A program made the translations under genes and the position numbers. A stretch of 64,000 nt of DNA from a virus: IMG/VR virus record IMGVR_UViG_3300048833_000111, positions 32,218 to 96,217 of that record; one strand, given 5' to 3'. Positions 1,887-39,400 of this stretch are shown here, in pieces. The notes beneath the pieces were generated by a model. That model was not told where the DNA came from. It ran no database searches and saw only the letters and a program-made list of their open reading frames with translations. Within the stretch, counting starts at the first letter, position 1, and every line of letters starts with the position of its first letter.

Positions 1887-2633
1887 CTACTTTTTTTTTA
1901 CATTATTGCAATCTGTCAAGTTAAATTTTTTTAAATAAAATCCTGAAGACTTATGAAATTTATTTTTAGTTAAAAGTATTTGTCTTACTCTTTCCCTACT
2001 TATACTAAGAAAATTTCCTACTTCTTTTAAGGTTTTAAAAGTATATTCTTTTTCATCATTATACACTTTAACTCTTTTTAAGTTATATAGTTTAGATTTT
2101 TCCCTACTTTCATTAGTATAAGATTTCCAATTATTTATAATATGTTTATTACATACATAAAATTCAGGAGTTACTAATCTATACTTTCTCTTGTAAACAG
2201 TTTCAGTATTTATTGTACTTGTATTATAAGTACTTCTTTTATTATTAGTAGTATACCTAATACATTCAGATATACTAGGAAAAACTTTAATTAGATTTCC
2301 TTTTAAATCAATTAAACACACAGCTATTTGCATACAATCAAACCCTCCTGCTTTAGCTATTTTAGTTTGATTATAATTCTTATTAAAATCTAAAGTATCA
2401 AGGTATTTTTGTTCAATTTCATATAAGTTATTATAACTACATATTTCTAGTATCTCCCATTTAAAAGCTTGTTTTCCATATTTATTAAATGAGGATTGTA
2501 AATGAGAATTTTTATGTGTACCTTTTTTTAATTCTCTAAAATGTCTCCTTATTCTATCTTCTATATTTTTAGAAGAACCTATATAACATTTATTATTTTT
2601 AATATTTGTTATTTTATATATTCCTGTTTTCAT
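1887..2633 (-). CDS. Free-standing GIY-YIG homing endonuclease with NUMOD-like DNA-binding domains
   Basis: GIYKITN...YIGSS..R..H motif; conserved Glu (EIEQKYL) and YN. Confidence 0.9.
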   Translation of the reverse strand: MKTGIYKITNIKNNKCYIGSSKNIEDRIRRHFRELKKGTHKNSHLQSSFNKYGKQAFKWEILEICSYNNLYEIEQKYLDTLDFNKNYNQTKIAKAGGFDCMQIAVCLIDLKGNLIKVFPSISECIRYTTNNKRSTYNTSTINTETVYKRKYRLVTPEFYVCNKHIINNWKSYTNESREKSKLYNLKRVKVYNDEKEYTFKTLKEVGNFLSISRERVRQILLTKNKFHKSSGFYLKKFNLTDCNNVKKK

Positions 2634-2743: not shown

Positions 2744-3079
2744 ATGGAAAATTTACTAGAATATAAAGTGGTTATATACCTTAATAATGCTAAAGCTGAA
2801 GAACAGGCTGAAAAGTATAGGGATTTAGGTATACAGATTCCTGAAGAAGAACAGGAAGTAGAAGAAAAGATTGTTAAATACTCTTTTAATATTAGTGGAG
2901 AGATAGTAGAGATTAGGGAGACTTTTGTTAAATATATGTCAGAATGGCTACCTGCTGTATGTGTCTCCTTTACTACAAAGGAAGGTACATTTATAGATAC
3001 ACCTCCATTACTTGTTACATATGAAGAGTTTAAAAGAAATTTAAATGAACATAATAAGAAAGATACTCAGGTTAAATAA
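2744..3079 (+). CDS. Hypothetical protein
   Basis: 111-aa ORF directly after promoter. Confidence 0.7.
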   Translation: MENLLEYKVVIYLNNAKAEEQAEKYRDLGIQIPEEEQEVEEKIVKYSFNISGEIVEIRETFVKYMSEWLPAVCVSFTTKEGTFIDTPPLLVTYEEFKRNLNEHNKKDTQVK

Positions 3080-3401
3080 GGAGGAGTATTATAAAAAACA
3101 TTTACTGATAATTAATCATTTGTTACCTATACAGATGACTCCTAAAGAAGCTGAAGTTTTAGCTGCCTTTATGTCATTGGAAGGAGATATAGCAAATGAC
3201 CCTTTTGGTACATCTGGAAGAAAGATAGTAAAAAATAAATTAGGTATATCTGCTGGAGGATTGGGAAATTATTTAGACCAATTGAAAAAGAAGGAATTTA
3301 TATTGACTAGAGATGACAGCTCACTTTATATATTACCTATACTGATTCCTGACAGAGATATACAGGGATACCAATTTAAATTAGAAAACAATGAAGTGTA
3401 A
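3045..3401 (+). CDS. Putative winged-helix DNA-binding protein
   Basis: MTPKEAEVL...KLGISAGGLGNYLDQLKKKEFI resembles a wHTH. Confidence 0.6.
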   Translation: MNIIRKILRLNKEEYYKKHLLIINHLLPIQMTPKEAEVLAAFMSLEGDIANDPFGTSGRKIVKNKLGISAGGLGNYLDQLKKKEFILTRDDSSLYILPILIPDRDIQGYQFKLENNEV

Positions 3402-3555
3402 GAGAACTAAAAATGGATTACTACTTCCAACTATATTTGAAATGGAATTCTTTGGAGTGAAAGCAATACCAGATAATACTTACTATAATCCAAATACACT
3501 TGAAGTAGTAGAAAGAGAATTATTCAGTCAACAAGAATTTCACACATATGCATAA
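3391..3555 (+). CDS. Small hypothetical protein (54 aa, not in ORF track)
   Basis: MKCKRTKNG...EFHTYA*; fills the gap and overlaps both neighbours. Confidence 0.6.
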   Translation: MKCKRTKNGLLLPTIFEMEFFGVKAIPDNTYYNPNTLEVVERELFSQQEFHTYA

Positions 3556-3928
3556 TTATAAAGTAAGTAGAAATGGTCTTTGGGGGGATAGGGTAAAACC
3601 ATCTTATCCAGGTATTACCAAAGAAATGATAGAAGAGACTGTACAATATGTCTTTAGGGACCAACCTGAAAGACAGATGGTATTACATACTGGACCAAGA
3701 GGAATGGAACAATTTAGACAAGCTGTGCAAGAAGAGTTAAATAGTGATGAACAGCTCTGGGCTGATATAAGAAATGAACAGTATCCTTTAACACCAGAAG
3801 AGTCTTTTGATACAGGTGTAGTAACACAAGTAGGTTGGACAACAGCAACCAACCCTAATTATTTAAGATTACAGAGAGGAGAAATAACACCAGTGGAATA
3901 TCTGGATTTAATAAGTGAAGAAGAATGA
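3548..3928 (+). CDS. Hypothetical protein with MCP-like segment
   Basis: ITKEMIEETVQYVF..VLHTGPRGMEQFRQAVQE resembles MCP LTAKLIEEFLLDIF..KVFTGEYGMVLFNRAMQD. Confidence 0.6.
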   Translation: MHNYKVSRNGLWGDRVKPSYPGITKEMIEETVQYVFRDQPERQMVLHTGPRGMEQFRQAVQEELNSDEQLWADIRNEQYPLTPEESFDTGVVTQVGWTTATNPNYLRLQRGEITPVEYLDLISEEE

Positions 3929-4335
3929 ATATATTTAAATTTCAACACCCATCAGACTTAATCTCAAGATTATTTATACTTGAGTATATGAGAGAAATTG
4001 GGGCAAGCACATTATATAGTAAAGCAAATAAACATCAGAGAAATAAGTTTTTCTATAAGTTTACTTCAGAGGATACAGAAGGTACTCAAGAGATAGAATC
4101 AGTAGATATTAATTATGAGTATTGTTTATTTATAGCTACTCTTCATGAACTAGAATCATTCTTGAAATTATTTCTTGATGAAATAGAACAAGTGGAAGCT
4201 AGTAGACAAAAGATTTATAAAGAGGCTAAAAAGAAGTTAATTGAGGAAAGAATAAAAGCTCCTGTAGATATTAATATAATGGATTTAGCCCAAACTGAAA
4301 TAAATAAAAATAACTCTAATGAACTCATTCTCTAA
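3925..4335 (+). CDS. Hypothetical protein
   Basis: 136-aa ORF, ATGA overlap. Confidence 0.65.
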   Translation: MNIFKFQHPSDLISRLFILEYMREIGASTLYSKANKHQRNKFFYKFTSEDTEGTQEIESVDINYEYCLFIATLHELESFLKLFLDEIEQVEASRQKIYKEAKKKLIEERIKAPVDINIMDLAQTEINKNNSNELIL

Positions 4336-4609
4336 TAATATAGAAGAATATTGGGAAGAAGTAAAAGACCAGTATGATATAGATTTTGAAGAATTTAAAA
4401 AAGTATGTAAGAATGTATTTACTTTTATAAAGGAAACTATATCTTCTGGTGTTGGTAAAAATATTAGGGTAAAATATCTTGGGGTATTTGAAGTTTCTAA
4501 AAGTAGAGTAGAATATTGTAAAAAATCACTTCTTAATAATCTAGAGAAAGGAGCTATATCCCAAGAAAGGTATGATAAAAGAATAAAGATATTAAATAAT
4601 TATGTTTAG
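4319..4609 (+). CDS. HU/IHF-like DNA-binding protein
   Basis: Helices followed by NIRVKYLGVFEV, an HU/IHF beta-strand signature. Confidence 0.6.
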   Translation: MNSFSNNIEEYWEEVKDQYDIDFEEFKKVCKNVFTFIKETISSGVGKNIRVKYLGVFEVSKSRVEYCKKSLLNNLEKGAISQERYDKRIKILNNYV

Positions 4610-6603: not shown

Positions 6604-6873
6604 ATGATTATATTACCAACAGGTGCTGTTATAGTAAAACAGAGAATAGAGAAATATAAAAATTCAGGGGGTATAATATTGGAAGATACCAGTGCATTGG
6701 ATAAAGTGTATAATGATGGAGAGATTATATTTACTGCCCCAGAGCTTACAGATTTACAGTCAAAGAAAATAGTATTTAGACCTAATTATGCAGAGGAAAT
6801 AGATATTGAGGGAGAAAAATATTTATTTTTTAGGGATGTACAATCCTCTATGTATTATATTATAGAAGAATAA
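6604..6873 (+). CDS. groES: GroES-like co-chaperonin
   Basis: P...VIVK....K.SGGIIL mobile loop; YAEEIDIEGEKYLFFRD; 89 aa. Confidence 0.75.
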   Translation: MIILPTGAVIVKQRIEKYKNSGGIILEDTSALDKVYNDGEIIFTAPELTDLQSKKIVFRPNYAEEIDIEGEKYLFFRDVQSSMYYIIEE

Positions 6874-9080
6874 TGATTAGAAAAAGTAGTGGTGTTTGGG
6901 TAGACTCTTCAGTATTTAGAGCAGAGGCAATTAAATTCCAAGAGAATGGAGTTTATTGTTCTGCTCCTATTGGTACTCCAGATTGGTTTACATATTGGGA
7001 AGAACAGTTGAGAAGATGTAGAGAAGGTTATGAAGTTGATGGTCATAAGATAACTGGTAATCACTACTTTTATTTAAATTTTACCCAAATACAAATTGTA
7101 AAAGAAGAAGATGATGATTCTGTAGTAGCAGAGAAAATCACCCAACAACCTGACTTTTGGGATGGGGATTACAATTACTTTTGGGCTTTGGAAATAGCTA
7201 AGAATGGAATCTGTACAAAGAATAGTTTAGTACCTTCAACTGAGCAGGAAAGAAAAGATTGGATAGCTTACAATAAAAAAGTAAAATTAATTAAGAAAAA
7301 AGATAGAAAGACCTATAGAAATAATCCAGAATATTTAAAGGCTAAAGAGAAAAGAGATACTATTTCTAAAGCTATATTGGATAGGTTAAATTTATTTGTA
7401 AAACCCCATCTGGATTATTTGGATGGTGGTTATCATATGATTGTAGGTAAGTCTAGAAGGAAGGGTTACTCTTATAAGGATGGTGCAATTTGTGCTAATA
7501 TTTATAATACAGTTAGAAAAGCACAGGTTATTATTGGAGCGCATGAAAAGAAGTTCCTTTATCCTAAAGGGACTATGGGTATGGCATCAGATTATTTAAA
7601 CTTCTTAAATGAACATACTGGATGGGCAAAATCTAGAGATTATGTAGATAAACAGGACCATAAAAAAGCTTCTTATAAAACAGTAGTAAATGGTGTACCT
7701 GTAGAGAAGGGTTATGAATCTGAAATATTTGCACTATCTTTTAAAGATAATCCAGATGCTGCTAGGGGAAAGGATGGTAAGATTGTACTATTAGAGGAGG
7801 CAGGAGCTTTCCCTAATTTAAAAGATGCATACAATGCTATATATCCTGCACTTACAGGGGGTTCTTATATTACTGGACAAATTATTATATTTGGAACTGG
7901 TGGGGATATGGAATCAGGTACTGTAGACTATGCTGATATGTTCTATAATCCTACTGCCTACAGATTAATGCCTTTTATAAATATATGGGATGAAAATGGA
8001 CAGGATTCTGTTTGTGGATTCTTCCATCCAGTTACTTGGAATCTTGAAGGTTTTTATGATTCACAAGGTAATTCAGATATAGAGGGTGCTACTGAGTTTG
8101 AAAATGATAGGAGACAGACATTATTGGAAGAATCCTCATCATCAACTACCCTTCAGAAACACGTACAGGAATACCCATTCTGTCCTTCAGAAGCCTTTCT
8201 TACTGTCAGTACTAACAACTTCCCTGTTATTGAGCTGAGAAACCAACTTAATAAAGTTATACATGAGAGATTACAATTGAAAAAGGGTACTCCTGTGTAT
8301 TTAGATAGGGTAAATGGAAAAGTAGTTGCAAGACCAGATTTACAGAATAAATTACAACCAGTATTAAACTATAGACCTAAGATAGAAGATTTAACTGGGT
8401 GTCCAATTATATATGAATATCCAATAGATAATCCTCCTAAAGGATTATATAAAATAGGATATGACCCATATAGGCAGGATTTATCAACAGGTGTATCTTT
8501 AGCAGCTATTTATGTATACAAGTCTTCACATAAATTCTCATATAAGAGAAACATTATAGTAGCTGAATATGTAGGTAGACCACCAGAAGCAGATGATGTA
8601 AATAGAATAGCAGCTCAATTGGCTGAACTTTACAATGCAGAAATAATGCATGAAAATGAAGTTACACATGTAAAGAATTATTTTAGAAGAACAAAACAAT
8701 TACATTTGTTAGCTGCACAACCTGATGAGGTTATCAGTAAAAATATAAAGAACTCTACTGTTGCAAGGATATATGGTATACATATGAATGAACAGTTAAA
8801 AGATGCTGGGGAGAAATATATAAAGGATTGGTTATTGGAAGTAAGAGATTATGATGAGAATGGTAGTCCAATATTAAATCTGGAAAGTATATATTCTATA
8901 GGTCTTTTAGAAGAATTAATACAATATAACAGAAAAGGAAACTTTGATAGGGTAATGTCTTTTATGATGTGCATGTTCCAAATACAAGAAGAAGATTTAG
9001 GTAAGGAATATGGCGATAAAGAAAATACAAGAGTGCAAAGTATTGTAAACTTTTTTGATAAACTAAATAAAAGAAATTAA
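6873..9080 (+). CDS. terL: Terminase large subunit
   Basis: KSRRKGYSY Walker A, LLEEAG Walker B, GTGG, GYDPY and NFDRV nuclease motifs. Confidence 0.95.
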   Translation: MIRKSSGVWVDSSVFRAEAIKFQENGVYCSAPIGTPDWFTYWEEQLRRCREGYEVDGHKITGNHYFYLNFTQIQIVKEEDDDSVVAEKITQQPDFWDGDYNYFWALEIAKNGICTKNSLVPSTEQERKDWIAYNKKVKLIKKKDRKTYRNNPEYLKAKEKRDTISKAILDRLNLFVKPHLDYLDGGYHMIVGKSRRKGYSYKDGAICANIYNTVRKAQVIIGAHEKKFLYPKGTMGMASDYLNFLNEHTGWAKSRDYVDKQDHKKASYKTVVNGVPVEKGYESEIFALSFKDNPDAARGKDGKIVLLEEAGAFPNLKDAYNAIYPALTGGSYITGQIIIFGTGGDMESGTVDYADMFYNPTAYRLMPFINIWDENGQDSVCGFFHPVTWNLEGFYDSQGNSDIEGATEFENDRRQTLLEESSSSTTLQKHVQEYPFCPSEAFLTVSTNNFPVIELRNQLNKVIHERLQLKKGTPVYLDRVNGKVVARPDLQNKLQPVLNYRPKIEDLTGCPIIYEYPIDNPPKGLYKIGYDPYRQDLSTGVSLAAIYVYKSSHKFSYKRNIIVAEYVGRPPEADDVNRIAAQLAELYNAEIMHENEVTHVKNYFRRTKQLHLLAAQPDEVISKNIKNSTVARIYGIHMNEQLKDAGEKYIKDWLLEVRDYDENGSPILNLESIYSIGLLEELIQYNRKGNFDRVMSFMMCMFQIQEEDLGKEYGDKENTRVQSIVNFFDKLNKRN

Positions 9081-9082
9081 TT

Positions 9083-11518
9083 ATGTCAGAACAAAGAGTC
9101 AGTACACAACAAAGATTGACAAGAAAACAAAAAAATGCTAATGATAAGCAGTATTTTAAAGACCAATTGGATTCCTTAGATTCATTGTCTTTTATAAATG
9201 GTGGTATCTTTACATTTGGAGAGAATGCTACTGGAATGTCAGAGTATAGAAGAATGAAAATCAACTATGATTTATTTAATAATATAGTAAATAAAACTGA
9301 TTTTGAACATGTATGTTCTCCATTTGGTAAAGAGGTTGGAGAGCTTCCAGCAGATTTTACAAACAAAGATATCATATCAGGTAAGGTTAAAGCTCTACTT
9401 GGTATGGAAATGAAAAGACCTTTTTCATGGAAAGTAGCAGCAACCAATGAGGAAGCTACTACTAGAATAGAACAAGAGGAGTTTAAACTTTTAAAGGATT
9501 TTGTAATAAACAGTATTATGTTGCCAATAAGACAACAAATAGAACAACAGTATTTAGAGCAAAGTCAAGGAAAAGAGCTTTCTCCAGATGAGCAAAGAAA
9601 AATTCAGGAACAGGTAGAACAGGAGATGCAATCTATGACACCACCTGAAGTTAAGAGGTATATGTCCAGGGAACATCAGGACCCTGCTGAAGCATTGGCA
9701 CATCAAATTTTAGAATATCTTATAGAGAAAGAAGATATAAAAATGAAATTCAATAAGGCTTGGAAACATGGTCTTATATCAGGAAGGGAAATATTCTGGG
9801 TAGGTATAGTAAATGGGGAGCCTTGTATAAGAGTTGTAAACCCATTAAGATTTGATTATGATAAAAGTCCTGATTTAGATTATATTGAAGATGGAGAATG
9901 GGCTGTATATGAAATGTATATGACTCCCTCTGAAATTGTAAAAAGCTTTGGTAGTGAACTTAGTGATGAGGATATAGATGATATATATGAAGAATACCAT
10001 AATGTAGCTAGTTTTTCAGATGACTCATTTACATTTAGAAATGATGGTGTCTCTAGTATAAATGGAGTAAGGGTGTTACATGGTGAATGGAAAGGACTTA
10101 AACCTATAAAATTTATAGAAGGGGTAGACCCTGTTACTGGAGAATTTTATGAAGATATAGTAGATGAAAGTTATCAGTTAAATGGAGAAGCTGGAGATAT
10201 AAATGAAAGAATTGAATGGATTATTACTAAGTATGAGGGTTATAGAATAGGAAGGGATAAGTATGCTTTCCTTAGAGAAGTACCAGGTCAGTATAAGGAT
10301 TTAACTAATTTATATCATTGCAAGCTATCTTTTATAGGTGCTGCCTATGATAATCTAAACTCTGAAGTTACATCTTTGGTGGATAGGATGAAATACTGGC
10401 AGTATTTTTACAATATTATAAGTTATAGAATAGAACTTCTTACTGCATCTGATGAAGGAAAGAAAATATTACTTAACTTAAATTTAATACCTAAAGGTTC
10501 AGGTATAACTTTAGAAAAGTGGATGCATTATTTTTCTGCAAATAAAATAGGTTTCTTGAATCCAAATGAAGAGGGTAATAGAAATGCAGATATCACACAG
10601 GCAGCAAAAGAAATTGATATGTCTCTTGCATCTGACATCCAAAAATATATAGCTTTAGCTGAATATATAGAAAGAAGATGTGGAGAATCTGTTGGTATTA
10701 CTAAACAAATTGAAGGGCAAATTAAAGAAGATGAGGCTGTATCTAATACTAGAACAGCAATTATACAATCTTCAAATATTATTGAACCTTACTATGAAGT
10801 GCATAATAATATAAAAAGAAATGCTCTACAAGCTCTTATTGAATGTGCTAAGGTAGCATATGCTGAATTCCAACCTAGGTATATAAACTATGTACTTGAT
10901 GATATGTCAAGAAGAATGGTCAATATAGATTATGAGTTGTTAGAAAATTCTACTTATGGCATCTTTGTATCTAATTCAATGAAGTCACATGAAGCATTAC
11001 AAATGGTACAACAATTATCACATGCAGCATTACAGAATCAAACTGCTGAACTATCTGATGTACTTAAGATTATGAGAAGTGAATCTGTACAAGAGGCAGA
11101 AGAATTACTTAAAGTTGCAGAACAAGATAGAAAAGATAGAGAGCAACAAATGCAACAACAACAACTTCAAGCTCAAGCTGAATCTGAAGAAAAAGCTAGA
11201 GAATTTAAGAGAGAGGAATGGCAACATGAAATGAATAAGATGGAGAGAGAGGAAGAACTTAAAACAGAAAGAGAACTTCAGAAACAAGCTATATTATCAC
11301 TTGGATTTAATGAAGATAAAGATTTGGATAAAGATGGTATGCCAGATGTACTTGAAGTTTATAAAGCTGGGGTAGATGCCCAAATAAAAGCAAGTAAACA
11401 AAAATTAGATGAAGACAAACTAATGCATCAAAAAGAAGTTGATAAGAAAAAGCTTGAACAAAAGGATAAAGAGATAAAAATTAAACAACAACAAGGTAAT
11501 AAAGTAGTTAAAAAGTAA
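9083..11518 (+). CDS. Portal protein (crAss-like)
   Basis: 811 aa after TerL; coiled-coil C-terminus with DLDKDGMPD. Confidence 0.9.
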   Translation: MSEQRVSTQQRLTRKQKNANDKQYFKDQLDSLDSLSFINGGIFTFGENATGMSEYRRMKINYDLFNNIVNKTDFEHVCSPFGKEVGELPADFTNKDIISGKVKALLGMEMKRPFSWKVAATNEEATTRIEQEEFKLLKDFVINSIMLPIRQQIEQQYLEQSQGKELSPDEQRKIQEQVEQEMQSMTPPEVKRYMSREHQDPAEALAHQILEYLIEKEDIKMKFNKAWKHGLISGREIFWVGIVNGEPCIRVVNPLRFDYDKSPDLDYIEDGEWAVYEMYMTPSEIVKSFGSELSDEDIDDIYEEYHNVASFSDDSFTFRNDGVSSINGVRVLHGEWKGLKPIKFIEGVDPVTGEFYEDIVDESYQLNGEAGDINERIEWIITKYEGYRIGRDKYAFLREVPGQYKDLTNLYHCKLSFIGAAYDNLNSEVTSLVDRMKYWQYFYNIISYRIELLTASDEGKKILLNLNLIPKGSGITLEKWMHYFSANKIGFLNPNEEGNRNADITQAAKEIDMSLASDIQKYIALAEYIERRCGESVGITKQIEGQIKEDEAVSNTRTAIIQSSNIIEPYYEVHNNIKRNALQALIECAKVAYAEFQPRYINYVLDDMSRRMVNIDYELLENSTYGIFVSNSMKSHEALQMVQQLSHAALQNQTAELSDVLKIMRSESVQEAEELLKVAEQDRKDREQQMQQQQLQAQAESEEKAREFKREEWQHEMNKMEREEELKTERELQKQAILSLGFNEDKDLDKDGMPDVLEVYKAGVDAQIKASKQKLDEDKLMHQKEVDKKKLEQKDKEIKIKQQQGNKVVKK

Positions 11519-12753: not shown

Positions 12754-14220
12754 ATGGCAACATTAGGAAGTAGATTAAAAACAAAGCAGATGCCTTGGCA
12801 TGCTAATATGACTGAGTTGAATCACTTGGGAGCTGCTTTGATTGCTAAGCCTCACGTATTTGAAGGTAAGATGAATCAACTATTTTCTGCACAAAATTAT
12901 TATTCTGATAACCCACTATCAAGTATAGCTTGGGGTACAGGAGCAGAAAAAGTTATCACTACAATGGAGTGGGAATGGCAGTTAAAAGGTGCTAATACTA
13001 GACCTCTAGTAGTTATTGAAAATGTTGAACCAGCAGCTAATACAACTCCAGGAAAAGGTAAAGAACCATTTTTCGTAAAATTGGATGAGAATTGGTATGA
13101 AGCAGGGGATACAATAACTCCAGGTACAGCAGGTCAGAAGTATCAGTGTAGAATTATGGAGAAACCAGAGAAACATGGTAATGGTTGGATATATAAAGTT
13201 AGACTTAAGTCTGATGATTTCCAAGCATTCTTACCAGTATCTTTGTTACAACCAGGTCAACAATGGGCTAAGCTATGGGCTGAATACGAAGAAGGTGCTA
13301 ACCAAGATGGTAGTACTCAGTATGCAATGCCTTTGACACTTAGAGATTCTCTAGGTAAATTCAGAAAGAAGTATGAAGTAACAGATTACGCATCTGAAGA
13401 AGTTCTTGCAGTAAAAATTCCAGATTCAAAAGGTGGATACCATGATTCTTGGATTAAATATGCTGAAGTAGAATATTGGCAACAATGGTACAGAGAGCTT
13501 GAAAGAGCATTCTGGTATAATAGAAAAACAAAATCTGTACAAGGTTCAACAGGTAGAAGTGTAGATAACTTCTCAGGTATCCAAGAGAAACTTGAAGATA
13601 GTCATTTACACTATTACACTGAATTAACAGCTAAACTTATTGAAGAATTCTTATTGGATATCTTCTATTCAAGAGTTAAGCCAGGTTCAGGTAGAAAGAT
13701 TAAAGTATTCACAGGTGAATATGGAATGGTATTGTTCAATAGAGCTATGCAAGATATTATGGATAAGAGAGGTTGGGTTATTGCTAACCAAAACTTCAAT
13801 CCAGTACAAAAAGCTACTTCTGCATACCACTCAAATGCTTACTCTGTAGGATATCAATTCGTACAGTACAAAATGCACAATGGTGCTGAACTTGAATTAG
13901 TACACAATCCTCTATATGATGATAGAAGTATTAACTTTGAAATTGACCCAGTAACTGGTTATCCAGTAGAATCAATGAGATTTACTTTCCTTGATTTCTC
14001 AGGTGGAAATGGAGAAAGTAATGTATCTCTAGTATCTAAGAAAGATGGTTACAAATTTGGATATGTTGGTGGATTAGTAAACCCAATGGGACCTAATAAA
14101 GGTGGTCTTATGGCTCACGCAGGGGAATACTACTCAATGCACGTATCTAAAATATGTGGTGTACATATTGAAGATATCACTAAGTGTGGTGAACTTATAT
14201 TAAAAAGAAACGTAGGTTAA
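12754..14220 (+). CDS. Major capsid protein (crAss-like, HK97 fold)
   Basis: 488 aa; synteny TerL-portal-scaffold-MCP; TGEYGM and HNPLYDD motifs. Confidence 0.9.
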   Translation: MATLGSRLKTKQMPWHANMTELNHLGAALIAKPHVFEGKMNQLFSAQNYYSDNPLSSIAWGTGAEKVITTMEWEWQLKGANTRPLVVIENVEPAANTTPGKGKEPFFVKLDENWYEAGDTITPGTAGQKYQCRIMEKPEKHGNGWIYKVRLKSDDFQAFLPVSLLQPGQQWAKLWAEYEEGANQDGSTQYAMPLTLRDSLGKFRKKYEVTDYASEEVLAVKIPDSKGGYHDSWIKYAEVEYWQQWYRELERAFWYNRKTKSVQGSTGRSVDNFSGIQEKLEDSHLHYYTELTAKLIEEFLLDIFYSRVKPGSGRKIKVFTGEYGMVLFNRAMQDIMDKRGWVIANQNFNPVQKATSAYHSNAYSVGYQFVQYKMHNGAELELVHNPLYDDRSINFEIDPVTGYPVESMRFTFLDFSGGNGESNVSLVSKKDGYKFGYVGGLVNPMGPNKGGLMAHAGEYYSMHVSKICGVHIEDITKCGELILKRNVG

Positions 14221-26159: not shown

Positions 26160-27104
26160 ATGGGAAAAAAATTTCAATATGTCACTTTAGATAGAATACT
26201 ATCTAAACTATATAGAGACCTAGGACTAGATGAAATCTCTGAAACAGATGTAATTGAGTGGACTGGAGAAGCTCTTAACTTTATGGAAACACCTAGCCTC
26301 TTAGAAGAGGCTGTTGCATTTATAGAGGTTTCTAATCATTCAGCTACCTTACCAAATGGTCTACAAGCTATTATACAAGTAGCTAGGAACAATAATTTTA
26401 TTAAGGATAATAGCTGTCCAGCTAATGTAGTATTAGATACTACAGAGGAAATAACAGAAGATACTACTTGTCCCAACATAAATAATATTCCTTTAATACT
26501 AGATTGCAAGGGTAGTCCAATAAGAGGATTTGAATTAGCTTACTATAGACCTTACTATGATTTACAATATGAATATTCAGGTTGGGGTAATAGTCATTAT
26601 TACAAATCTCAATTCACACCTATGAGGTTAGCAAATCATAGTTTCTTTAACACTTTAGTATGTCCAGAAGATAAACAGATATATACTGAAAGTTGTAGAG
26701 ATGAATATACTATTGCAGGAGACCAAATTAAAACATCTTTTAAGGATGGGCAAATTGCTATAGCTTATTATAGACAAATAGTAGATGAGGAAACAGGGTA
26801 TCCAATGATACCAGATGATTCTTCTTTTACTACAGCTATTACAATGTATATTACTATGAAGTATATGGCTAGAATGTGGTATATGGGAAGAGAGGGGTAT
26901 GCAGATAAAATGCAAAAAGCTGAAGCTGATTGGCAATGGTATTGTAAACAATCTACCAATAAAGCTTTTACATTATATGGATTGGATGAACATCAAAATA
27001 TGTTGGATAGTAGATACCAGATGATACCAAATTTTAATAAATATTATGGATTTTTTGGTAAATTAGGTACTACAGATAGAGGAATTAGTTTAAGAGGAAT
27101 ATAA
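26160..27104 (+). CDS. Tail tubular/ring protein
   Basis: IEWTGEAL...DEETGYPMIPD...WQWYC; precedes muzzle. Confidence 0.7.
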   Translation: MGKKFQYVTLDRILSKLYRDLGLDEISETDVIEWTGEALNFMETPSLLEEAVAFIEVSNHSATLPNGLQAIIQVARNNNFIKDNSCPANVVLDTTEEITEDTTCPNINNIPLILDCKGSPIRGFELAYYRPYYDLQYEYSGWGNSHYYKSQFTPMRLANHSFFNTLVCPEDKQIYTESCRDEYTIAGDQIKTSFKDGQIAIAYYRQIVDEETGYPMIPDDSSFTTAITMYITMKYMARMWYMGREGYADKMQKAEADWQWYCKQSTNKAFTLYGLDEHQNMLDSRYQMIPNFNKYYGFFGKLGTTDRGISLRGI

Positions 27105-27105
27105 T

Positions 27106-30100
27106 ATGCAAGGAGATAAATTACAAAGACCATATAAAGGTTTATATAAAGATACTTCTAAACAGGACCAACCTAAAGATACTTATTTATTTGCATTAAA
27201 TGCAGTTAATGAGACTGAAGTAGGGGATTCTAATCTTATAGGTAATGAAGAGAGTAATGCATTATGTGCAAATATAACTTCTGGATATATACCTCTAGGA
27301 AAGGTTTATATTGGCAATAATGAAACTGTAATATTATCAGTTTCTCAAGATGAAACTAGTTCTGAAATAGGTATATTAGATGGTAACTGTAAGTACAAAG
27401 TATATGTAAATGATAGTGATAGTACAGAAGAAGATAAACTTAATTTTAAAGTAAGTAATCAAATACAGGCTGTGTATAGATTAAGGAGAGGTTGTGAAAG
27501 AACAATTTATTTTACTGATGATTATAACAAACCTAGATACTTTAATTTTAATAATCCAAATAAATTTAAAAATAATGATGGTAGTTGGAATGCCAATTTA
27601 TTTGATTTACAAAAACAATATTCTAAAATACCTAACTTTCAAAGTGTTGAGATATTAGATTCTGGAGGTAATTTAGAACCTGGTGGATATAATATTGCTA
27701 TACAGTATGTAGATGATAGTTTAAATCCAACAGAATGGATAACAACATCTCCCCTAATAGAAATATATAATGACCTATCTTCTGAGGAATTTAGAAAAAT
27801 AAGTGGTAGTATTAATGGAGATGAGGACTTCTTTGCATACCCTAGAACCAGTAAAGCTATTAAAATAATATTATCTAATATAGATACAGATTTTGTTTTC
27901 TACAGATTAGCTTTTATAGAATCAAATAATGGGTCAGGACAAATAAGTGATGTAAAGTATTCAGATATAATACCTACATCAAAAAACTTCTTTATATATA
28001 CAGGAGATAATGCTATAAGTACAGGTACTACTCAAGAGATAGCAGCTTTCTCTGATATTATATATAAAGCACAAAGTATTGAACAGATAGAAAATAGATT
28101 ATTGTTAGGTAATACAGAAGGTAAGAAAGTAGATTTTTGTAAGTTACAACAATATGCATCTAGAATTAAAGCTGATTGTATTACAAAGACTGTTAATCTA
28201 ACAGATTTGGTAGACCCAGCTAACCCTAAAAATCCATCCCACCAATTTAATGGTATAGGTTATATGCCTGGTGAGATATATTCTTTTGGTATAGTTTATA
28301 TATTTGAGGACAATTCATTATCTCCAGTATTCCATATACCTGGAAAAAACCCTACAGTAGACCCAGAGGCTGTATTCTCTCCAGCAGAGAATGTATATCC
28401 TATGTCAAATAACAATCAAATAAGTACTACTTATATAGATAATGATACTTGTGGTAATAATAACTTCTGGGGTAAAGATGCACAAGGGGATTCTCTTACA
28501 GGTAAGCCTGTAAGACATCATAGATTTCCCTTAAGAAGTGATATAAATCTACCTTTGGTAACAGACCAAATAGGAGAAGAACAAACTGTAGATTATTACC
28601 AATTATTTTTAAGGATACAGGGAACACTTATAACTCCTGTTTCCTGTCCACCTGAAAACCCAGGTTGTGGAACTGATGTATCTAACTTTTTTGAAGTTAG
28701 GGTAAATTACAAAGTAGAAGGAGAAAGTTTTAGTTTTACTGAACTAGTAGACCCTGCTTTCTTTGCAGATGAATCAGGTACTTTTGAGCTGGATATACAG
28801 GAAAACTCACAATATCATTCTACTAATGTCTTTACAGATATTGAAATAGAGATATCTGATATTAATGGAACTTTCCATCCACTGGTAACAGTAGGGGGAG
28901 ATGCTGAATATAATAATGAGTTTGGGGATTATTTTGATGGTACAGCAGATTTTACAACATCAGTAGAGTTATTTGAAGCTACTGTACAAGATAGAACTTA
29001 TAGTACTGAGATATTAGGTATAAAATTTTCTGGTATTGAATTACCAGAATTAAATGAGTTGAACCAGGATAGAGGTAATAGAATAATTGGATACTATATA
29101 GTAAGAAATGAAAGAACTGAGTTTGATAAGACTATATTGGATTCAGCAGTTCTTACTCCTTCTACTATTTATAAGAATTATATATCACATGGGTTGCTAC
29201 AACCTGAAACTAATAATATATCAGATTCTGTATATGGTATAATACATCCAGAACATAAATTTAATGATAAAGAATATACCCAATATGATGAGATTATACA
29301 GCAAGGTAATTTTACATTAAGGGATAGAAAATATGGTAAAGTCTCTTTTAATGATGTTTTTGATGGTTCATCTTTAGATACAAGTAAACAAAAAGATACA
29401 GGAGATGATGGAAAACCAGCAGATGGTAAACCTAGAACTGATGGGTATGATGGATGGAGTTTAGAGATAATATCTAGAGATAATATTGTATCCTATGAAA
29501 GTAAATCAGAGTTTACTATAAGTAGAGCTAATATTGAAGAGAATTTTTATTTAGATGCTCTAGAGAGTAGAGCTATAAATGCTGAAGCAAATGATGTCTT
29601 TAATATTACTACTGATAATAAGATTGGTATAGTACAATTAAAAGAAGGTACAACAATACCTCAAAGTAGTAATTTACCTTATGTAGTATTTAGAAAAAAT
29701 AATTTAGAATCTTATTCAGATTTTAGAACTCTTCCTTATTATAAGGAAACAGTAAATCCTAAGTACTTCAGTGGAGGACCTAGTGGAGAGATATGTACAG
29801 TATTTAATGGAGATAGTTATGTATCTCCAATGAGATATGTAAACTCTGTATTCTGGGATAATAGAGTTGCTAAAAGAGCAGGAAAAACTAATGTTTGGAA
29901 ATATATTGTAGGGGCTATATTAATTGTAGTTGCTGTAGTATTAGCTTATTTTACTGTAGGTACTTCTCTAGCTCTTATTGGAGCTGCTGCTGCATTGATG
30001 GCAGCAGGTGGTGGAGTACTGCTTATTAGTGCTGGAGTAAAGCAGGATAACTGGAATAAGGTATATATGCAAGAATATGACAAAGGTCTTAGGGAGACAG

Positions 30101-32457
30101 CTCTAGATAGTTGGGTAAATGCTTTTTATAGATATAGGGCTACAGTAGGTTCTTATTTTCCAATTCCTTGGACTGGACAAACAGAACATTCTGGACAACA
30201 CGCTAAGGATGGTCCAACTGATGATACTATACAATGGATAGGGGATTGTATAACAGACCTATGGTTTGAAAGTTCTATAAATATAAACTTAAGGGTCCCT
30301 TTAATTACAGATTTACCTAGTTTCTTGGATTCTCCAGGCAAGATAGAATCAGGTAATAATAAACCTATAGATTTATATGAATTTTTTGATATTTATTATG
30401 CTTCAAGTAATCAAGAAAGATACCCAGTATCTTCTCTTGAAAGACACTTAGCACAGAAATTACTAATGTTCAATGGAGATAGAAATGATAATAAAGAATA
30501 TATTGGACTTGCATTAGGTGAATTATATAAACTTAATCCAGATTACTTAAGAATAAATAAAGAAAAAATATTTTATCATTTACCTCTAGAGTATGATTGT
30601 TGTTCAGAATGTCAAGAGAACTTTCCACATAGAATACATTATTCAGAACAGTCATTCCAAGAAGAGTTAAGTGATAATTATAGAATATTCTTACCTAATA
30701 ACTATAAAGATATACAAGGTGAAACTGGAGAGATTACAAACTTATTTAAAATAGGTAATGATTTATTTATACATACCTTAGAGGGATTATGGCAAATGCC
30801 AAGAAACTATCAAGAAAGAGTTACAGACCAAGTAGTATCTTTTATTGGTACAGGTTCTTATTTTGAAATCCCACCTCAAAAGATATTAGATGATGATACA
30901 GGGTTATCAGCAGGATTACAACATAAGTGGAGTGCTATAAAAACTCCTTCTGGATATTTCTTTGTTTCTGAAAACCAGAAAGCTATATATCAATTCAATG
31001 GTAAAAAACTTAATCCTATATCTTCTGTAGGATTATCTAATTGGTTTAAGGAAAACTTAGAATCAAAATTGGATAAGGATTATAATATTAGAAACAATAA
31101 AATATACCCTTATAAAGATAACCCCAGTAATCCATTTGGTACAGGATTTATTTCTACTTATGATAGTAAAAAAGAGAGATTAATATTTACTAAAAAAGAT
31201 AGAAATTTTACACAAAATATAGTGGGCAATACTGGATATGAGATTGCAGTTTGTAATGGACAAGTTATAGTGTTTTATGATTTTCAAGCTACTATAGATA
31301 ATTATGAGAATCTTGGTTATAAGTATTTAGGTATAAAAGATTGTCAAATGGTATTCTCTATAGAAGTTATTGAAGAAGTACAAGTTGTAGAGTATGTATG
31401 GGTTCCACCTGTAATAGAAACACACTTCGTAACTTATTTTAAAGGCTTCTGGGAAGAAGATGACCCTGCACATCCTAATGGTGGTACTGTAACTTATATA
31501 ATCTATCCAGGTGGTATAGAAAGTACTATTGATAATATATGGAATAATGACTGTATAGGATTACCAAATCAAGGTATTGTAAGTTATCATGGATGCGCAC
31601 CTGGATGTGAACCACAAGAGACTATAGAAGTTATTATAACACCAGGTTATTATGAACAAATAATTAAAGTTGTAGAACAACCTGTAACAGAGTATCTATA
31701 CATAGATGGTACTCCACTTGAAGATAAGAATAGTATAAATAATTCATGGACTATTAGTTATTCTTTAAAAAGTAACTCTTGGATATCTTGGCATTCTTAT
31801 ATACCTAATTTCTATATCAATATACCAGAAAAATTCTATTCTTGGAAATTTGGGAACAATGGTATATGGAAACATAATAATAAAACCAATTACCAGACTT
31901 TTTATGGGGAACAATATCCTTATATATTGGAATATGTATCTACATCTTCTCCTACAACAATGATTACAAATCATATTAGATTTAATACTGAAGCTAAAAA
32001 ATATGATTTTTCTACTCAAGAGTATAATGAGGAAAGATATATAACATTTAATAAAGCTATTATATACAATTCTAGGCAGTGTTCTGGTTTAATAGATTTA
32101 ATTGTTAAGGATACTCAATCCAATCAACAGGATTATCTGTTACATCAAATTCAAAATAATGGTAATAATAATTTTATAATAGATAGAAATGAAACTGATT
32201 GGACTTTAAATGATTTAAGAGATATAAGAATAGATTATACAAAACCTATATGGAACTCTAATATAAATTCACTTCAATCTGAATACTATATAGATAAAAA
32301 GCTTAATGCTATTACTATGGATGTCAATAAAGATTGGACACAGCTTGAAAGTTTTAGAGACAAATATTTGGTAGTTAGGTTAATATTTGATAATTTTGCA
32401 GATATTAAGTTACTTACAAATTATTCAATAGAAAATGAACAAGAATCTTATAGGTAA
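27106..32457 (+). CDS. Tail stabilisation/muzzle protein
   Basis: 1783 aa, beta-rich; NEESN, YFTD..NKPR, WTISYS..WISWHSYIP; crAss synteny. Confidence 0.8.
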   Translation: MQGDKLQRPYKGLYKDTSKQDQPKDTYLFALNAVNETEVGDSNLIGNEESNALCANITSGYIPLGKVYIGNNETVILSVSQDETSSEIGILDGNCKYKVYVNDSDSTEEDKLNFKVSNQIQAVYRLRRGCERTIYFTDDYNKPRYFNFNNPNKFKNNDGSWNANLFDLQKQYSKIPNFQSVEILDSGGNLEPGGYNIAIQYVDDSLNPTEWITTSPLIEIYNDLSSEEFRKISGSINGDEDFFAYPRTSKAIKIILSNIDTDFVFYRLAFIESNNGSGQISDVKYSDIIPTSKNFFIYTGDNAISTGTTQEIAAFSDIIYKAQSIEQIENRLLLGNTEGKKVDFCKLQQYASRIKADCITKTVNLTDLVDPANPKNPSHQFNGIGYMPGEIYSFGIVYIFEDNSLSPVFHIPGKNPTVDPEAVFSPAENVYPMSNNNQISTTYIDNDTCGNNNFWGKDAQGDSLTGKPVRHHRFPLRSDINLPLVTDQIGEEQTVDYYQLFLRIQGTLITPVSCPPENPGCGTDVSNFFEVRVNYKVEGESFSFTELVDPAFFADESGTFELDIQENSQYHSTNVFTDIEIEISDINGTFHPLVTVGGDAEYNNEFGDYFDGTADFTTSVELFEATVQDRTYSTEILGIKFSGIELPELNELNQDRGNRIIGYYIVRNERTEFDKTILDSAVLTPSTIYKNYISHGLLQPETNNISDSVYGIIHPEHKFNDKEYTQYDEIIQQGNFTLRDRKYGKVSFNDVFDGSSLDTSKQKDTGDDGKPADGKPRTDGYDGWSLEIISRDNIVSYESKSEFTISRANIEENFYLDALESRAINAEANDVFNITTDNKIGIVQLKEGTTIPQSSNLPYVVFRKNNLESYSDFRTLPYYKETVNPKYFSGGPSGEICTVFNGDSYVSPMRYVNSVFWDNRVAKRAGKTNVWKYIVGAILIVVAVVLAYFTVGTSLALIGAAAALMAAGGGVLLISAGVKQDNWNKVYMQEYDKGLRETALDSWVNAFYRYRATVGSYFPIPWTGQTEHSGQHAKDGPTDDTIQWIGDCITDLWFESSININLRVPLITDLPSFLDSPGKIESGNNKPIDLYEFFDIYYASSNQERYPVSSLERHLAQKLLMFNGDRNDNKEYIGLALGELYKLNPDYLRINKEKIFYHLPLEYDCCSECQENFPHRIHYSEQSFQEELSDNYRIFLPNNYKDIQGETGEITNLFKIGNDLFIHTLEGLWQMPRNYQERVTDQVVSFIGTGSYFEIPPQKILDDDTGLSAGLQHKWSAIKTPSGYFFVSENQKAIYQFNGKKLNPISSVGLSNWFKENLESKLDKDYNIRNNKIYPYKDNPSNPFGTGFISTYDSKKERLIFTKKDRNFTQNIVGNTGYEIAVCNGQVIVFYDFQATIDNYENLGYKYLGIKDCQMVFSIEVIEEVQVVEYVWVPPVIETHFVTYFKGFWEEDDPAHPNGGTVTYIIYPGGIESTIDNIWNNDCIGLPNQGIVSYHGCAPGCEPQETIEVIITPGYYEQIIKVVEQPVTEYLYIDGTPLEDKNSINNSWTISYSLKSNSWISWHSYIPNFYINIPEKFYSWKFGNNGIWKHNNKTNYQTFYGEQYPYILEYVSTSSPTTMITNHIRFNTEAKKYDFSTQEYNEERYITFNKAIIYNSRQCSGLIDLIVKDTQSNQQDYLLHQIQNNGNNNFIIDRNETDWTLNDLRDIRIDYTKPIWNSNINSLQSEYYIDKKLNAITMDVNKDWTQLESFRDKYLVVRLIFDNFADIKLLTNYSIENEQESYR
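32367..32398 (+). promoter_or_regulatory. Sigma-A promoter for cargo genes, inside the muzzle 3' end
   Basis: TTTG-N20-TAATTTTG. Confidence 0.6.
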
Positions 32458-36410: not shown

Positions 36411-36413
36411 TAT

Positions 36414-39400
36414 ATGGAAGATGAAGAACTACAGGGAGTAGGTACTACAGAAGATATTAAAAAGCAAGAAGAGATACTTATGGCTAAAGCCAGAAGAAAA
36501 ACTCTAGAAAAGAATTTAGAGAATTCTATCTTTGGTACTAGCTCTGCTTCTATAAATTTTAAAGGTATAAATTATGCTTCAAGTGATTTTGCTGGTGGTT
36601 CTTATGGTAAGGCTGCTGAGCAAGGTGATTGGAGTAAATGGAGTATGCCAGATGATATGGCATATAAAGCATTTCAACAACAAGAGATTGGAGATTTAAT
36701 TATAGATACTTTAGCAGGAGGTTCTAAACTAGCTGTTGCTGGATTTTTAGATATGGCTGCATCTTGGGATTTAGCTGAAATCTCAAATGTAGCACAGGGA
36801 AATGCTATGGCTGAAACTGGAAACTGGTTACAACAACAAGCTGATAAATTACAATCTTCTGCACAACAAAAGAATACTATATACCAAGATGGTGATAATA
36901 TGTGGACTGCTGCATATTGGGCTAACCAAGGGCAACAGTTAGGTTACTCTACTGGTATTGTTGGAGAGATAGTAGCTGAACAAGCTATACTTGCTTTAGC
37001 TACTGGAGGGTCTGGAAATGCTGCTGGACTTGCATCTAAAGCTAGATTTTTAAAACCTCTACTTACACAAGGAGCTATGGGACTTGCTGGTGGTATGAGA
37101 GAGGCTTATATGAATGCTAGGGAAACACAAGAAAATGTGTACTCTAAGTTTATACAAAATGGATTTACAGAAGAAGAAGCAAAAGCAAAAGCTGATGAAG
37201 CTGCACATGTATCCTTTAAAACAGAAGCTGGTTCTCTTGTAGTATTAAACACACTTCAAAATATATTTCTATTTGGAGGAATGGGTAAAATCCAACCTTT
37301 TAATAGAGCAGCATCTCCACAACTTCAAATGGGATTCTCTTCTTTTGGAGAACAATTACTTGAAAAAGTATTACCTGAAACTACTTCTAAATTTGGAAAA
37401 AGGGCAATACAATATGGTCTTATACCTGCTGTTACAGAAGGTATGGAAGAAGGTGTACAAAGCTTATCACAACAATGGGGAGAATATTCTGTTGGGGATA
37501 AGAAAGAAAAGTTTGACCCTGTAAATACAGAACTTAGAGATAATGTTATTGGTGGTGCTTTAGGAGGAATACTTCTAGGTGCAGGTGCTAAAGCTATATC
37601 TAAATTTAATAACTATCTTGGTGACAATCAATTCTCCAAAGAATATAAGAATTTTATAGATACTGCTGTAGATAGAACAGCTAATACTTTTATAGAGCAA
37701 GAAAAAATTAAGAGAGAATATCAAGAAGCTCAAATAGCTTATAATAAAAATAAGACACAATCCAATCTAGAAGAACTTAATAGAGCAAAGCAGGCTGTTA
37801 AGCAAGCTAAGTATAATTCCCATTTAACAAATGCTGTAAATGCTTTACAGTATGATTATATTAAAGGGGAAGGTACTCAAGCTTTTGATGCACACATAGG
37901 TCAAATGCAAAGTGTACTTGATGCTGTAAAGAATAAGGATACAGAAGCTTTAAGAAAGCATGGTCTTATAATGGCTAATGGAAAAGAAAGATTTGCTGGT
38001 TCATTTGAAACCATTTTAAATACATTTGAGCAAAACATTAAAGATTCAGAATTTATAAAACAATCCCTAAGCAATAACTTAGAAAATGTTACTACTGATT
38101 TTGAATCTGCATTTGATATTACAAAAAAAGAATATACTAATTCAAAATACTTACAAGAGATTTCTGAATTAGAAGGGCAATTGGCTCAAGCACAAATGCT
38201 TGATACATATGTATCACAATTGTCTACTGATGGTAAAACAAGATTTAATCTAGAAAATGAATTAGCTGCTTTAGAACAGGTAGAGAATAATAAGGATACT
38301 AAAGGGTTATCCAAAGAGGACCAAAAAAGAAAGAAAGAGATAGAAAAAAAATTATCTGAACTTAAATATACAGATAGAGATAAGAAGATAATTCCCAATA
38401 CAAATAGAAAAGGTTATATTAATGCTGAGATAAGTAAAATTTCTTTAGGGCAAGCTATAGACCAAAATAATCTTGAGCTTAATTCTTTAAAAGATAGTAA
38501 TAAGATTACGGAGAAAATCAAAAATAGAGCTAAAGAGAAATTAAAAAAAGCTAAAACAAAAGATGCTATAACTAAGGCACAACAAGAGGCTGAACAAGCA
38601 GGGGTAGCTGATGAAAACTTTAATAAAGAAGTAGAAAATAAAGTTAAGGAAGTAGATAATAAAGATAAAATAGCTAATATAGATTCTACTGGACAAACTG
38701 TTTCTAGACCTGTACAAACAAAACCTAAAGAAAATTCCAAAGAGTCTGAACCAGATAGTGCTTCATTGTTTTCTGCTTTCTTAAAAGAAGGTAAAATATC
38801 TACTGCACCAAATCCAGAAGATGATATTATAAACCAAGCTTTCTCTAGACAGAGAATTCCAAATGAACAGATTACAGATGACCTAAAGGATAAGGCTAAT
38901 TTATTTGTAAAGAGAAAATCACAACAACTTGGTAAAGATGTAAATTTAGAAGATGTTATAGTTGACTCTATTGAAAGAAATGGTCTTAAAAATACAGAAG
39001 ATGTATTCCAAGGTATAGTAGCTTTAATGGAAACTGCTGGTAAGGATGTGTCTGAGGCTAATAGTTTATACTATAAATATTTTGAAGAGGATTATAATGT
39101 ATTTAAATCCTTTACAGTAGAGGAAGCTGATACTACAGTTAATACTGTAGAAAAACAAGCACAACAAAACACTGAATTTAAAGATAAGTTCAATGTTAAT
39201 GGACAACCTATATCTACACCTGTTGTAGAAAGAGATTATGAAGATACTAGAACCAATAAATCACAACCTAAAATTGCTTTTAATTTTCAGGAATATGAGA
39301 GAGATGGATTTATATTTACAATAACTTCTGATAAATTAAAAGGAGATAACCATTATATATTGGATTCTGAATTTGTAAATACAGGAGATATACTTACAGT

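Follow-up and report, generated by a model that had tools for sequence, protein, structure and literature searches.

Several described systems share one feature or another with the gene examined here. Bacteriophage T4 encodes, besides its major capsid protein (MCP) gp23, the paralogue gp24, a vertex protein that is a complete HK97-fold subunit and is built into the shell. A short internal peptide of gp23, the Gol region of the Gol/EF-Tu/Lit exclusion, is recognised by a host defence and activates it. DSAD1 is a small phage protein that competes with a structural-protein trigger for the sensor DSR2, and it is not homologous to that trigger, a tail-tube protein. In animals, Fv1 and enJS56A1 are restriction factors derived from truncated capsid (gag) sequences, which block assembly.

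Here we describe a small gene of a crAss-like phage (hereafter, the mini gene) whose product, the mini-protein, almost certainly derives in its middle part from a crAss-type MCP. The gene relates to known kinds, namely MCP paralogy and mimicry proteins, but in the literature we found no description of phages that turn excerpts of their own MCP into genes. Like T4 gp24, it is a second capsid-derived gene in the same phage; unlike gp24, it keeps an excerpt of only ~50-95 residues fused to unrelated motifs. If it acts as a decoy, its logic would be that of DSAD1 against DSR2, except that the mini-protein, as the candidate inhibitor, is copied from the putative trigger and the sensor is hypothetical. 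The Gol region, in contrast, acts within gp23 and not as a separate gene, and it belongs to a different part of a different MCP family. With Fv1 and enJS56A1 the mini gene shares truncation, fast evolution, capsid ancestry and a proposed role in conflict, but those factors are encoded by the host whereas the mini-protein is encoded by the virus. Major capsid proteins are frequent triggers of bacterial defences such as CapRel, Thoeris and CBASS (reviewed in PMC13728456).

Genome setting of the mini gene

The window analysed in this study is a 64,000-nucleotide stretch of viral DNA, bases 32218-96217 of an IMG/VR virus record that is 96,217 bp long and has direct terminal repeats. Judged by the Pfam and PHROGs matches of its MCP (Table 1), the source phage is crAss-like. 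The closest isolates by DNA are the FpV4-type Flavobacterium phages, with about 67% identity across part of the region; these isolates lack the mini gene, and their genes at the corresponding region are unrelated. The window also holds two giant ORFs, which probably encode the large virion proteins or RNA-polymerase-type proteins commonly seen in crAss-like phages.

The mini gene is the fourth gene of an uninterrupted + strand array that reaches the large terminase (TerL), portal and MCP genes. In order, the array comprises genes for 111-aa and 118-aa proteins, a 54-aa ORF, the mini gene, a 136-aa gene, an IHF/HU-like 96-aa gene, a Cys-rich 130-aa gene and a 97-aa gene, followed by an endolysin-like 196-aa gene, 69-aa and 183-aa genes, a Cpn10-like 89-aa gene, TerL, the portal gene, a 378-aa gene and the MCP gene. 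No terminator-like site was found on the + strand between 2400 and 7000, and a scan for sigma-70 promoters and terminators performed no better than shuffles. The mini gene is tightly packed, its ATG overlapping the stop of the 54-aa ORF by 8 nt and its TGA overlapping the ATG of the next gene (ATGA).

None of the related loci contains a homologue of the 54-aa ORF, which overlaps the mini gene at its start. Possibly this ORF is spurious; alternatively, it may be the remnant of an N-terminal extension that is present in P0010, L013 and L016. On the opposite strand, just ahead of the late gene array and ~1 kb 5' of the mini gene, lies a gene for a GIY-YIG homing endonuclease. The 96-aa protein has weak matches to the HU/IHF fold and is kept in all relatives. 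Directly 5' of TerL, the 89-aa Cpn10-like protein scores 24.3 bits against the Pfam cut-off of 21.1 bits and thus passes it; from this match, it may be a phage co-chaperonin. In T4, the co-chaperonin gp31 is required for the folding of gp23.

Table 1 Coordinates of the mini gene, its parts and the other features discussed (positions in the window unless a locus is named).
Feature	Position	Strand	Length or residues	Remarks
GIY-YIG homing endonuclease gene	1887-2633	-		NUMOD1 and sigma-70 region 4-like DNA-binding parts
118-aa gene, left flank of mini slot	3045-3401	+	118 aa	phrog_16323, weak winged-helix match
54-aa ORF	3391-3555	+	54 aa
Mini gene (P0001)	3548-3928	+	126 aa	at least 14 intact homologues
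N-terminal block YKVSRNGLWG	3557-3586	+	residues 4-13
MCP-derived core	3602-3745	+	residues 19-66	Pfam, PHROGs, hhalign, Smith-Waterman
Variable linker	3746-3862	+	residues 67-105	indel-rich across family
Acidic C-terminal block LRLQRGEITPVEYLDLISEEE	3863-3925	+	residues 106-126	L119, D120 invariant
136-aa gene, right flank of mini slot	3925-4335	+	136 aa	function not assigned
HU/IHF-like gene	4319-4609	+	96 aa	Pfam Bac_DNA_binding E 0.024; phrog_16533 E 8e-7
Cpn10-like gene	6604-6873	+	89 aa	Pfam Cpn10 (GroES) E 3.3e-5
TerL	6873-9080	+
Portal	9083-11518	+
MCP gene, crAss type	12754-14220	+	488 aa	Pfam PF23898 Crass_capsid E 2.5e-143, full length; phrog_11589 E 9e-164
MCP segment homologous to mini family	13489-13770	+	residues 246-339	hhalign
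Giant ORF	27094-32454	+	~1787 aa	stop-to-stop length
Giant ORF	36411-48569	+	~4053 aa	stop-to-stop length
L085-type excerpt	L085 3227-3541	+	105 aa	just 5' of 183-aa gene, sister clade
L020 excerpt	L020 1895-2164	+		between IHF-like and lysozyme genes
Degenerate short form	L011 890-1096	+	69 aa
Degenerate short form	L018 2316-2669	+
Cellulophaga phage phi4:1 gp064	L001 2074-3780		568 aa	virion structural protein, next after portal gene

Homology between the mini-protein and the MCP

The original prediction, made by eye, was that a segment of this small ORF resembles the MCP encoded further along. It had placed the resembling segments at 3614-3736 and 13624-13756, which correspond to residues 23-63 of the mini-protein and 291-335 of the MCP, and the likeness is borne out by profile comparisons. 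Pairwise comparison between the two proteins of this phage is borderline. BLASTP of the mini-protein against its own MCP returned nothing (best E 95), and Smith-Waterman alignment of mini-protein residues 19-79 with MCP residues 287-348 scored 58, compared with 33.3 +/- 5.3 for shuffled sequences, 2 of 1000 of which reached 58. In the domain databases, P0001 (the copy in the window) had a single match each in Pfam (Crass_capsid, E 1.4e-3, profile positions 298-351) and in PHROGs (phrog_11589, major head protein, E 2.1e-4, positions 298-348). The Pfam match scored 17.6 bits, below the gathering cut-off of 27 bits for family membership, and covers only positions 298-351 of the ~496 that make up the full-length profile and the complete HK97 fold.

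The evidence from the family is much broader. An exhaustive phmmer search of 1.84 billion representative sequences gave 15 matches, 13 of which were small proteins of one family; the remaining matches, of 2146 aa and 424 aa, were due to repeats or low complexity and were left out. Crass_capsid was matched by 11 of the 14 family members (best E 1.6e-9), any other Pfam family by one member at most. Two relatives also exceeded the 27-bit cut-off, P0004 with 27.3 bits (hmmscan) and the P0010 ORF with 30 bits (six-frame scan). When an alignment of the 14 family members (A1) was compared with one of 20 MCPs (A2), the profile alignment called for by the original prediction, hhalign gave a probability of 97.2% and an E-value of 4.1e-11 over 82 columns, pairing positions 3-84 of the mini consensus with MCP residues 246-339. 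The reverse search agreed, with the A1 HMM matching nearly every MCP of 80 fetched MCP loci at about residues 246-350 (E 1e-7 to 1e-3).

The only solved relative of this MCP is gp32 of PhiCrAss001 (PDB 7qof_A, E 4.9e-36), a crAss-type MCP (PDB 7QOF; PMC10172136). Residues 291-352 of gp32 were also the top match when the A1 HMM was searched against all PDB sequences, with a weak E-value of 0.11. Six-frame scans of 12 complete or near-complete relatives with Crass_capsid detected the MCP only, plus the mini gene in the three whose copy is well preserved (G000, G001 and G003), and there were no stray matches at E <= 1 in these genomes.

Two other candidate relationships were rejected. A tblastn match to MT838007, a scaffold from the human gut, was ascribed to chance because it lies within a gene for galactose-1-phosphate uridylyltransferase. 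Homology to gp57, the portal-vertex auxiliary protein of crAss001, was also dismissed, as the A1 profile does not return gp57 among PDB chains; gp57 is moreover a disulfide-linked dimer, whereas members of the mini family have no cysteine. We note separately that both the mini-family HMM and tblastn touched residues about 310-400 of gp064 of Cellulophaga phage phi4:1, a protein to which Pfam assigns no family. On this similarity, gp064 may be a distant crAss-type MCP.

We consider the homology established because the profile-profile alignment, the reverse HMM search, the clean six-frame background and the shared invariant residues (see below) all point to it. A chance resemblance, or an ORF that is not a real gene, would be in keeping with the empty BLASTP result against the phage's own MCP and with the sub-threshold Pfam score of the window copy taken alone; this explanation has already been refuted by the profile-profile and reverse-HMM results, family conservation also speaks against it, and we regard it as extremely improbable. 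The identity of the gene and its origin from an MCP are, in our assessment, nearly certain.

Anatomy of the mini-protein

According to a low-confidence AlphaFold2 (AF2) model, the MCP contains helices at residues 236-255, 276-280, 293-304 and 322-346 and strands at 257-263, 269-272, 284-288 and 315-320. The model is poor (pLDDT 50.4) and was used solely for the order of the secondary-structure elements. Read in this way, the segment homologous to the mini family runs from the end of the spine helix through a hairpin, a short helix and a strand into alpha5, a strand and alpha6 of the A-domain. The MCP-derived core of the mini-protein corresponds to the latter three elements (MCP residues 293-304, 315-320 and from 322 onwards): it consists of an alpha5-like helix, ITKEMIEETVQYVF, a strand-like RQMVLHTG and an alpha6-like helix, PRGMEQFRQAVQEEL. 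Across the family, the core follows the pattern LTxExIEE..VF..PER....HTGPxGxEQFxxA, and what it has in common with the crAss-type MCP (PF23898; gp32) is LT..IEE, R, TG..G and F..A.Q over MCP residues ~246-339. Specifically, the conserved residues R42, T48, G49, G52, F56 and A59 of the mini-protein correspond to R314, T320, G321, G324, F328 and A331 of the MCP, all of which are invariant or nearly invariant there.

The N-terminal block takes the form (Y/F)x(V/I)xxNGL(W/F)G in the family, with G10 invariant and L11 nearly so. Its homology to the MCP is uncertain, given that the alignments are inconsistent: hhalign places it at the end of the MCP spine helix, whereas hmmsearch against 7QOF places it elsewhere. 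Past the core follows a linker of about 10 to 130 residues in the family, which is probably disordered; in the window copy, residues 77-98 have a predicted pLDDT below 50. The acidic C-terminal block is modelled by AF2 as two short helices (helix motif EYLDLISEEE) and follows the family pattern LQxGEITxxEYLDLISE. Both terminal blocks are at least as well conserved as the core, and among close relatives (alignment A3) the C-terminal block is the best-conserved part of the protein. We rejected the idea that this block is a disguised MCP hairpin or MCP C-terminus, since it shows no significant similarity (hhalign E 0.43). The idea that the end motifs are a tag shared with other small phage proteins was rejected as well: HMMs of the two blocks found only the mini gene among the ORFs of the 96-kb genome, with next best E-values of 0.5 (C-terminal) and 0.026 (N-terminal).

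Longer family members (P0004, P0007, P0008, P0010, P0016 and L009) retain, in addition, a stretch GxGxxEQ(L/I)......Y that matches FSGIQEKLEDSHLHYY of the MCP (residues 272-288) and that the window copy has lost. All members are acidic (pI 4.05-5.09) and free of cysteine. The AF2 model of the mini-protein, built on the 14-sequence alignment, has low confidence (pLDDT 64.6) and predicts four helices, no sheet and no compact fold. With this model as the query, Foldseek found nothing similar in the PDB (best E 3.5), there was no usable match in the ESM Atlas, and NCBIfam had no match for the protein.

Judged from these alignments, the mini-protein is a chimera in which an old MCP excerpt stands between an NGLWG motif and, past a linker, an acidic C-terminal helix. 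It differs from the MCP in size (126 vs 488 aa), in its acidic C-terminal helix and in the predicted absence of a compact fold. It also lacks the N-arm, the E-loop and I-domain, the P-domain and most of the A-domain sheet, and for this reason it cannot form the HK97 fold. The likeness to the MCP that had originally been proposed thus holds for the middle of the protein; it does not extend to the acidic C-terminal helix, and at the N-terminal block it is left in doubt by the inconsistent alignment.

Distribution and divergence among related phages

Presence and absence of the mini gene were scored among loci with full upstream flank. The gene is confined to loci whose MCP shares at least 83% identity with that of the window, namely L009, L013, L016 and L021 (the latter being G001, which carries P0010). 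It occupies a fixed slot, always between homologues of the 118-aa and 136-aa genes and 5' of TerL. Degenerate short forms are found in L011 and L018; in these, an NGLW-type N-terminal motif and an xxYLDxLS-type C-terminal motif are kept and the MCP-like core is largely gone. The gene is absent from the slot in L020, where the MCP is 86% identical and the two flanking homologues adjoin. It is also absent from the clade with 62-70% identical MCPs (loci with full upstream flank), and the flanking genes adjoin in L029 of that clade. Searching viral and metagenome contig collections with the family profile yielded no loci beyond the P0010 genome.

The ORF was thus found to be conserved, a point on which the original prediction would have fallen had it turned out otherwise. 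Because there are 14 intact, divergent members and further locus copies in one fixed slot, and because the start and stop overlap both neighbours, we conclude that ORF 3548-3928 is a genuine gene, an accessory one carried by a subclade of crAss-like phages from the environment.

Among the conserved genes of the block, the mini gene evolves fastest, with 28-35% identity over partial length, compared with 85-91% for the MCP, 75-81% for TerL, 69-76% for the portal and 43-77% for the small flanking genes. The MCP segment that matches the mini family is nearly invariant across the clade, so the divergence of the mini gene does not track changes in the MCP. With regard to age, BLASTP of P0001 matches MCPs of the sister clade, at 34-38% identity over about 40% of its length. 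Since it finds these and not the phage's own MCP, and since identity is about 25-30%, the excerpt must be old. The suggestion of an MCP-derived mini-protein encoded upstream of the MCP therefore stands as regards significant homology and the common gene array, but not if it is taken to mean a recent copy of the phage's own MCP gene.

Other MCP excerpts in related phages

A search with the MCP HMM over all short ORFs of the loci revealed two further MCP-like ORFs, both at other positions (Table 1). The L085 ORF is 26% identical to residues 321-389 of its own MCP (E 6e-6) and belongs to a conserved family of five clusters (P0141-P0145; 105-109 aa, 66-94% identical). In hhalign comparisons, this family matched MCP residues 313-392 (the strand, alpha6 and a beta-hairpin) with an E-value of 1.7e-7, vs 3.7e-3 for the window family, which suggests that it was derived from the MCP separately. 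The L020 excerpt is a singleton with 37% identity to residues 315-412 of its own MCP (E 3e-16) and a Crass_capsid score of 45.5 bits. Within this region (1800-2167), a frameshift located in a run of ten A separates the excerpt from an alpha5-like ORF 5' of it, and the contig also contains Ns; the split may reflect an error in sequencing, a gene that is broken, or slippage.

The strand and alpha6 are common to the window family, the L085 type and the L020 excerpt, and the latter two are without the end motifs of the window family. From these similarities, related phages appear to have produced comparable MCP excerpts at least once more.

Possible functions of the mini-protein

The original prediction put forward three roles for the mini-protein, namely a decoy for capsid-sensing immunity, a regulator of assembly and an inhibitor of competing phages, and each of them is a candidate considered below. 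Our single best guess, tentative and held with less than even confidence, is that the mini-protein works by molecular mimicry, as a decoy for a host factor that binds the MCP. By displaying a conserved MCP element, it would occupy a partner that normally recognises that element on the MCP. The likeliest partner would be a host factor that binds or senses newly made capsid protein, for example an immune sensor, and the mini-protein, made from the MCP's own gene array, would be its non-activating competitor. The N- and C-terminal motifs may supply solubility, oligomerisation or a second contact. A role in conflict, or another accessory role, fits better than one in core assembly because the distribution is patchy, divergence is very fast and a second excerpt was separately derived; accessory distribution together with rapid evolution, as seen here, is the profile of a counter-defence-type gene. 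The display of an element is also in line with the AF2 model, given that it has no compact fold, and with the probable disorder of the linker.

Several considerations weaken the decoy reading. A sensor that meets a copy of its trigger would be expected to be activated, not blocked, unless the activating determinants have been lost. The residues shared with the MCP are mostly fold-determining (the TG..G turn and the helix F and A) and are not obviously on the surface, and an excerpt with a single beta strand cannot reproduce the surface of a folded A-domain. The location in a morphogenesis array, near the Cpn10-like gene and TerL, suits a role in assembly equally well. Furthermore, the core is possibly not the essential part, considering that the copies in L011 and L018 keep the end motifs with the core largely lost.

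The main rival is an assembly modulator that binds the MCP itself, an explanation that we likewise hold with less than even confidence and rate only slightly below the decoy. Here the excerpt would mimic one side of an A-domain contact or donate a strand to a folding intermediate, so that the MCP is capped or chaperoned until portal, scaffold or Cpn10/GroEL is available, and the acidic tail would dock another morphogenesis protein. The mini gene shares its + strand array with the Cpn10-like, TerL, portal and MCP genes, with no terminator-like site between them in a scan that was no better than shuffles, and the MCP residues that it retains are the fold-determining ones. Scaffolding-type proteins are acidic and have end motifs joined by a flexible linker, which the conserved ends, flexible linker and acidity (pI range given above) of the mini-protein recall. 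A scaffolding protein would, however, be present wherever its cognate MCP is, and the gene is missing both from L020, in which the MCP segment is near-identical, and, among loci with full upstream flank, from the entire sister clade (MCPs 62-70% identical), which argues that it is dispensable for assembly. Its divergence, far above that of the MCP and of the 378-aa gene between portal and MCP, likewise gives no sign of co-evolution with an MCP interface.

The forms in which the core is largely lost raise the alternative that the core is a relic. It would be a piece of MCP acquired by illegitimate recombination, possibly brought along by a mobile element, for which the homing endonuclease close by is a candidate. 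It would now be no more than a spacer or scaffold, with the function residing in NGLWG at one end and the acidic helix at the other. In favour are L011 (69 aa) and L018, where most of the core has gone and the end motifs persist, the C-terminal block as the best-conserved part in close relatives (A3), and the GIY-YIG gene ~1 kb 5'. Yet in most members precisely those residues that are invariant in the MCP (E/R, TG, G, F, A) survive at about 30% identity, which points to selection on an MCP-like structure, and relatives carry separately derived excerpts of the same MCP region without the end motifs; we consider a relic unlikely. It is less likely still that the mini-protein is a weapon against co-infecting relatives, i.e., a truncated MCP that acts as a dominant-negative poison of the capsomer assembly of competitors. 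Such a role would suit the patchy distribution and fast evolution, and assembly-blocking truncated capsid-derived proteins do exist in other virus-host systems (Fv1, enJS56A1). With the MCP segment nearly invariant in the clade, however, the producer's own MCP would be poisoned too, and no feature that could confer self-immunity is visible.

Possible implications for phage-host conflict

Returning to the decoy reading, its wider form would be that phages, crAss-like phages among them, repeatedly make excerpts of their own MCP into small genes. These would represent an unrecognised class of mimicry that blunts capsid-sensing host systems, and the A-domain helix-strand-helix would be the element that sensors read. 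This generalisation is speculative, and we think it rather doubtful. The system is well suited to testing, as it offers a small, defined family in a fixed slot, short and long forms, forms without the core, and at least one separately derived family of excerpts in sister phages.

Capsid proteins are among the commonest triggers of anti-phage defence, and escape by mutation is difficult for their conserved cores. If a phage gene indeed displays an excerpt of the MCP core, it would constitute either a new counter-measure or a new form of assembly control, and the mini-protein would indicate which part of the MCP is important to the partner.
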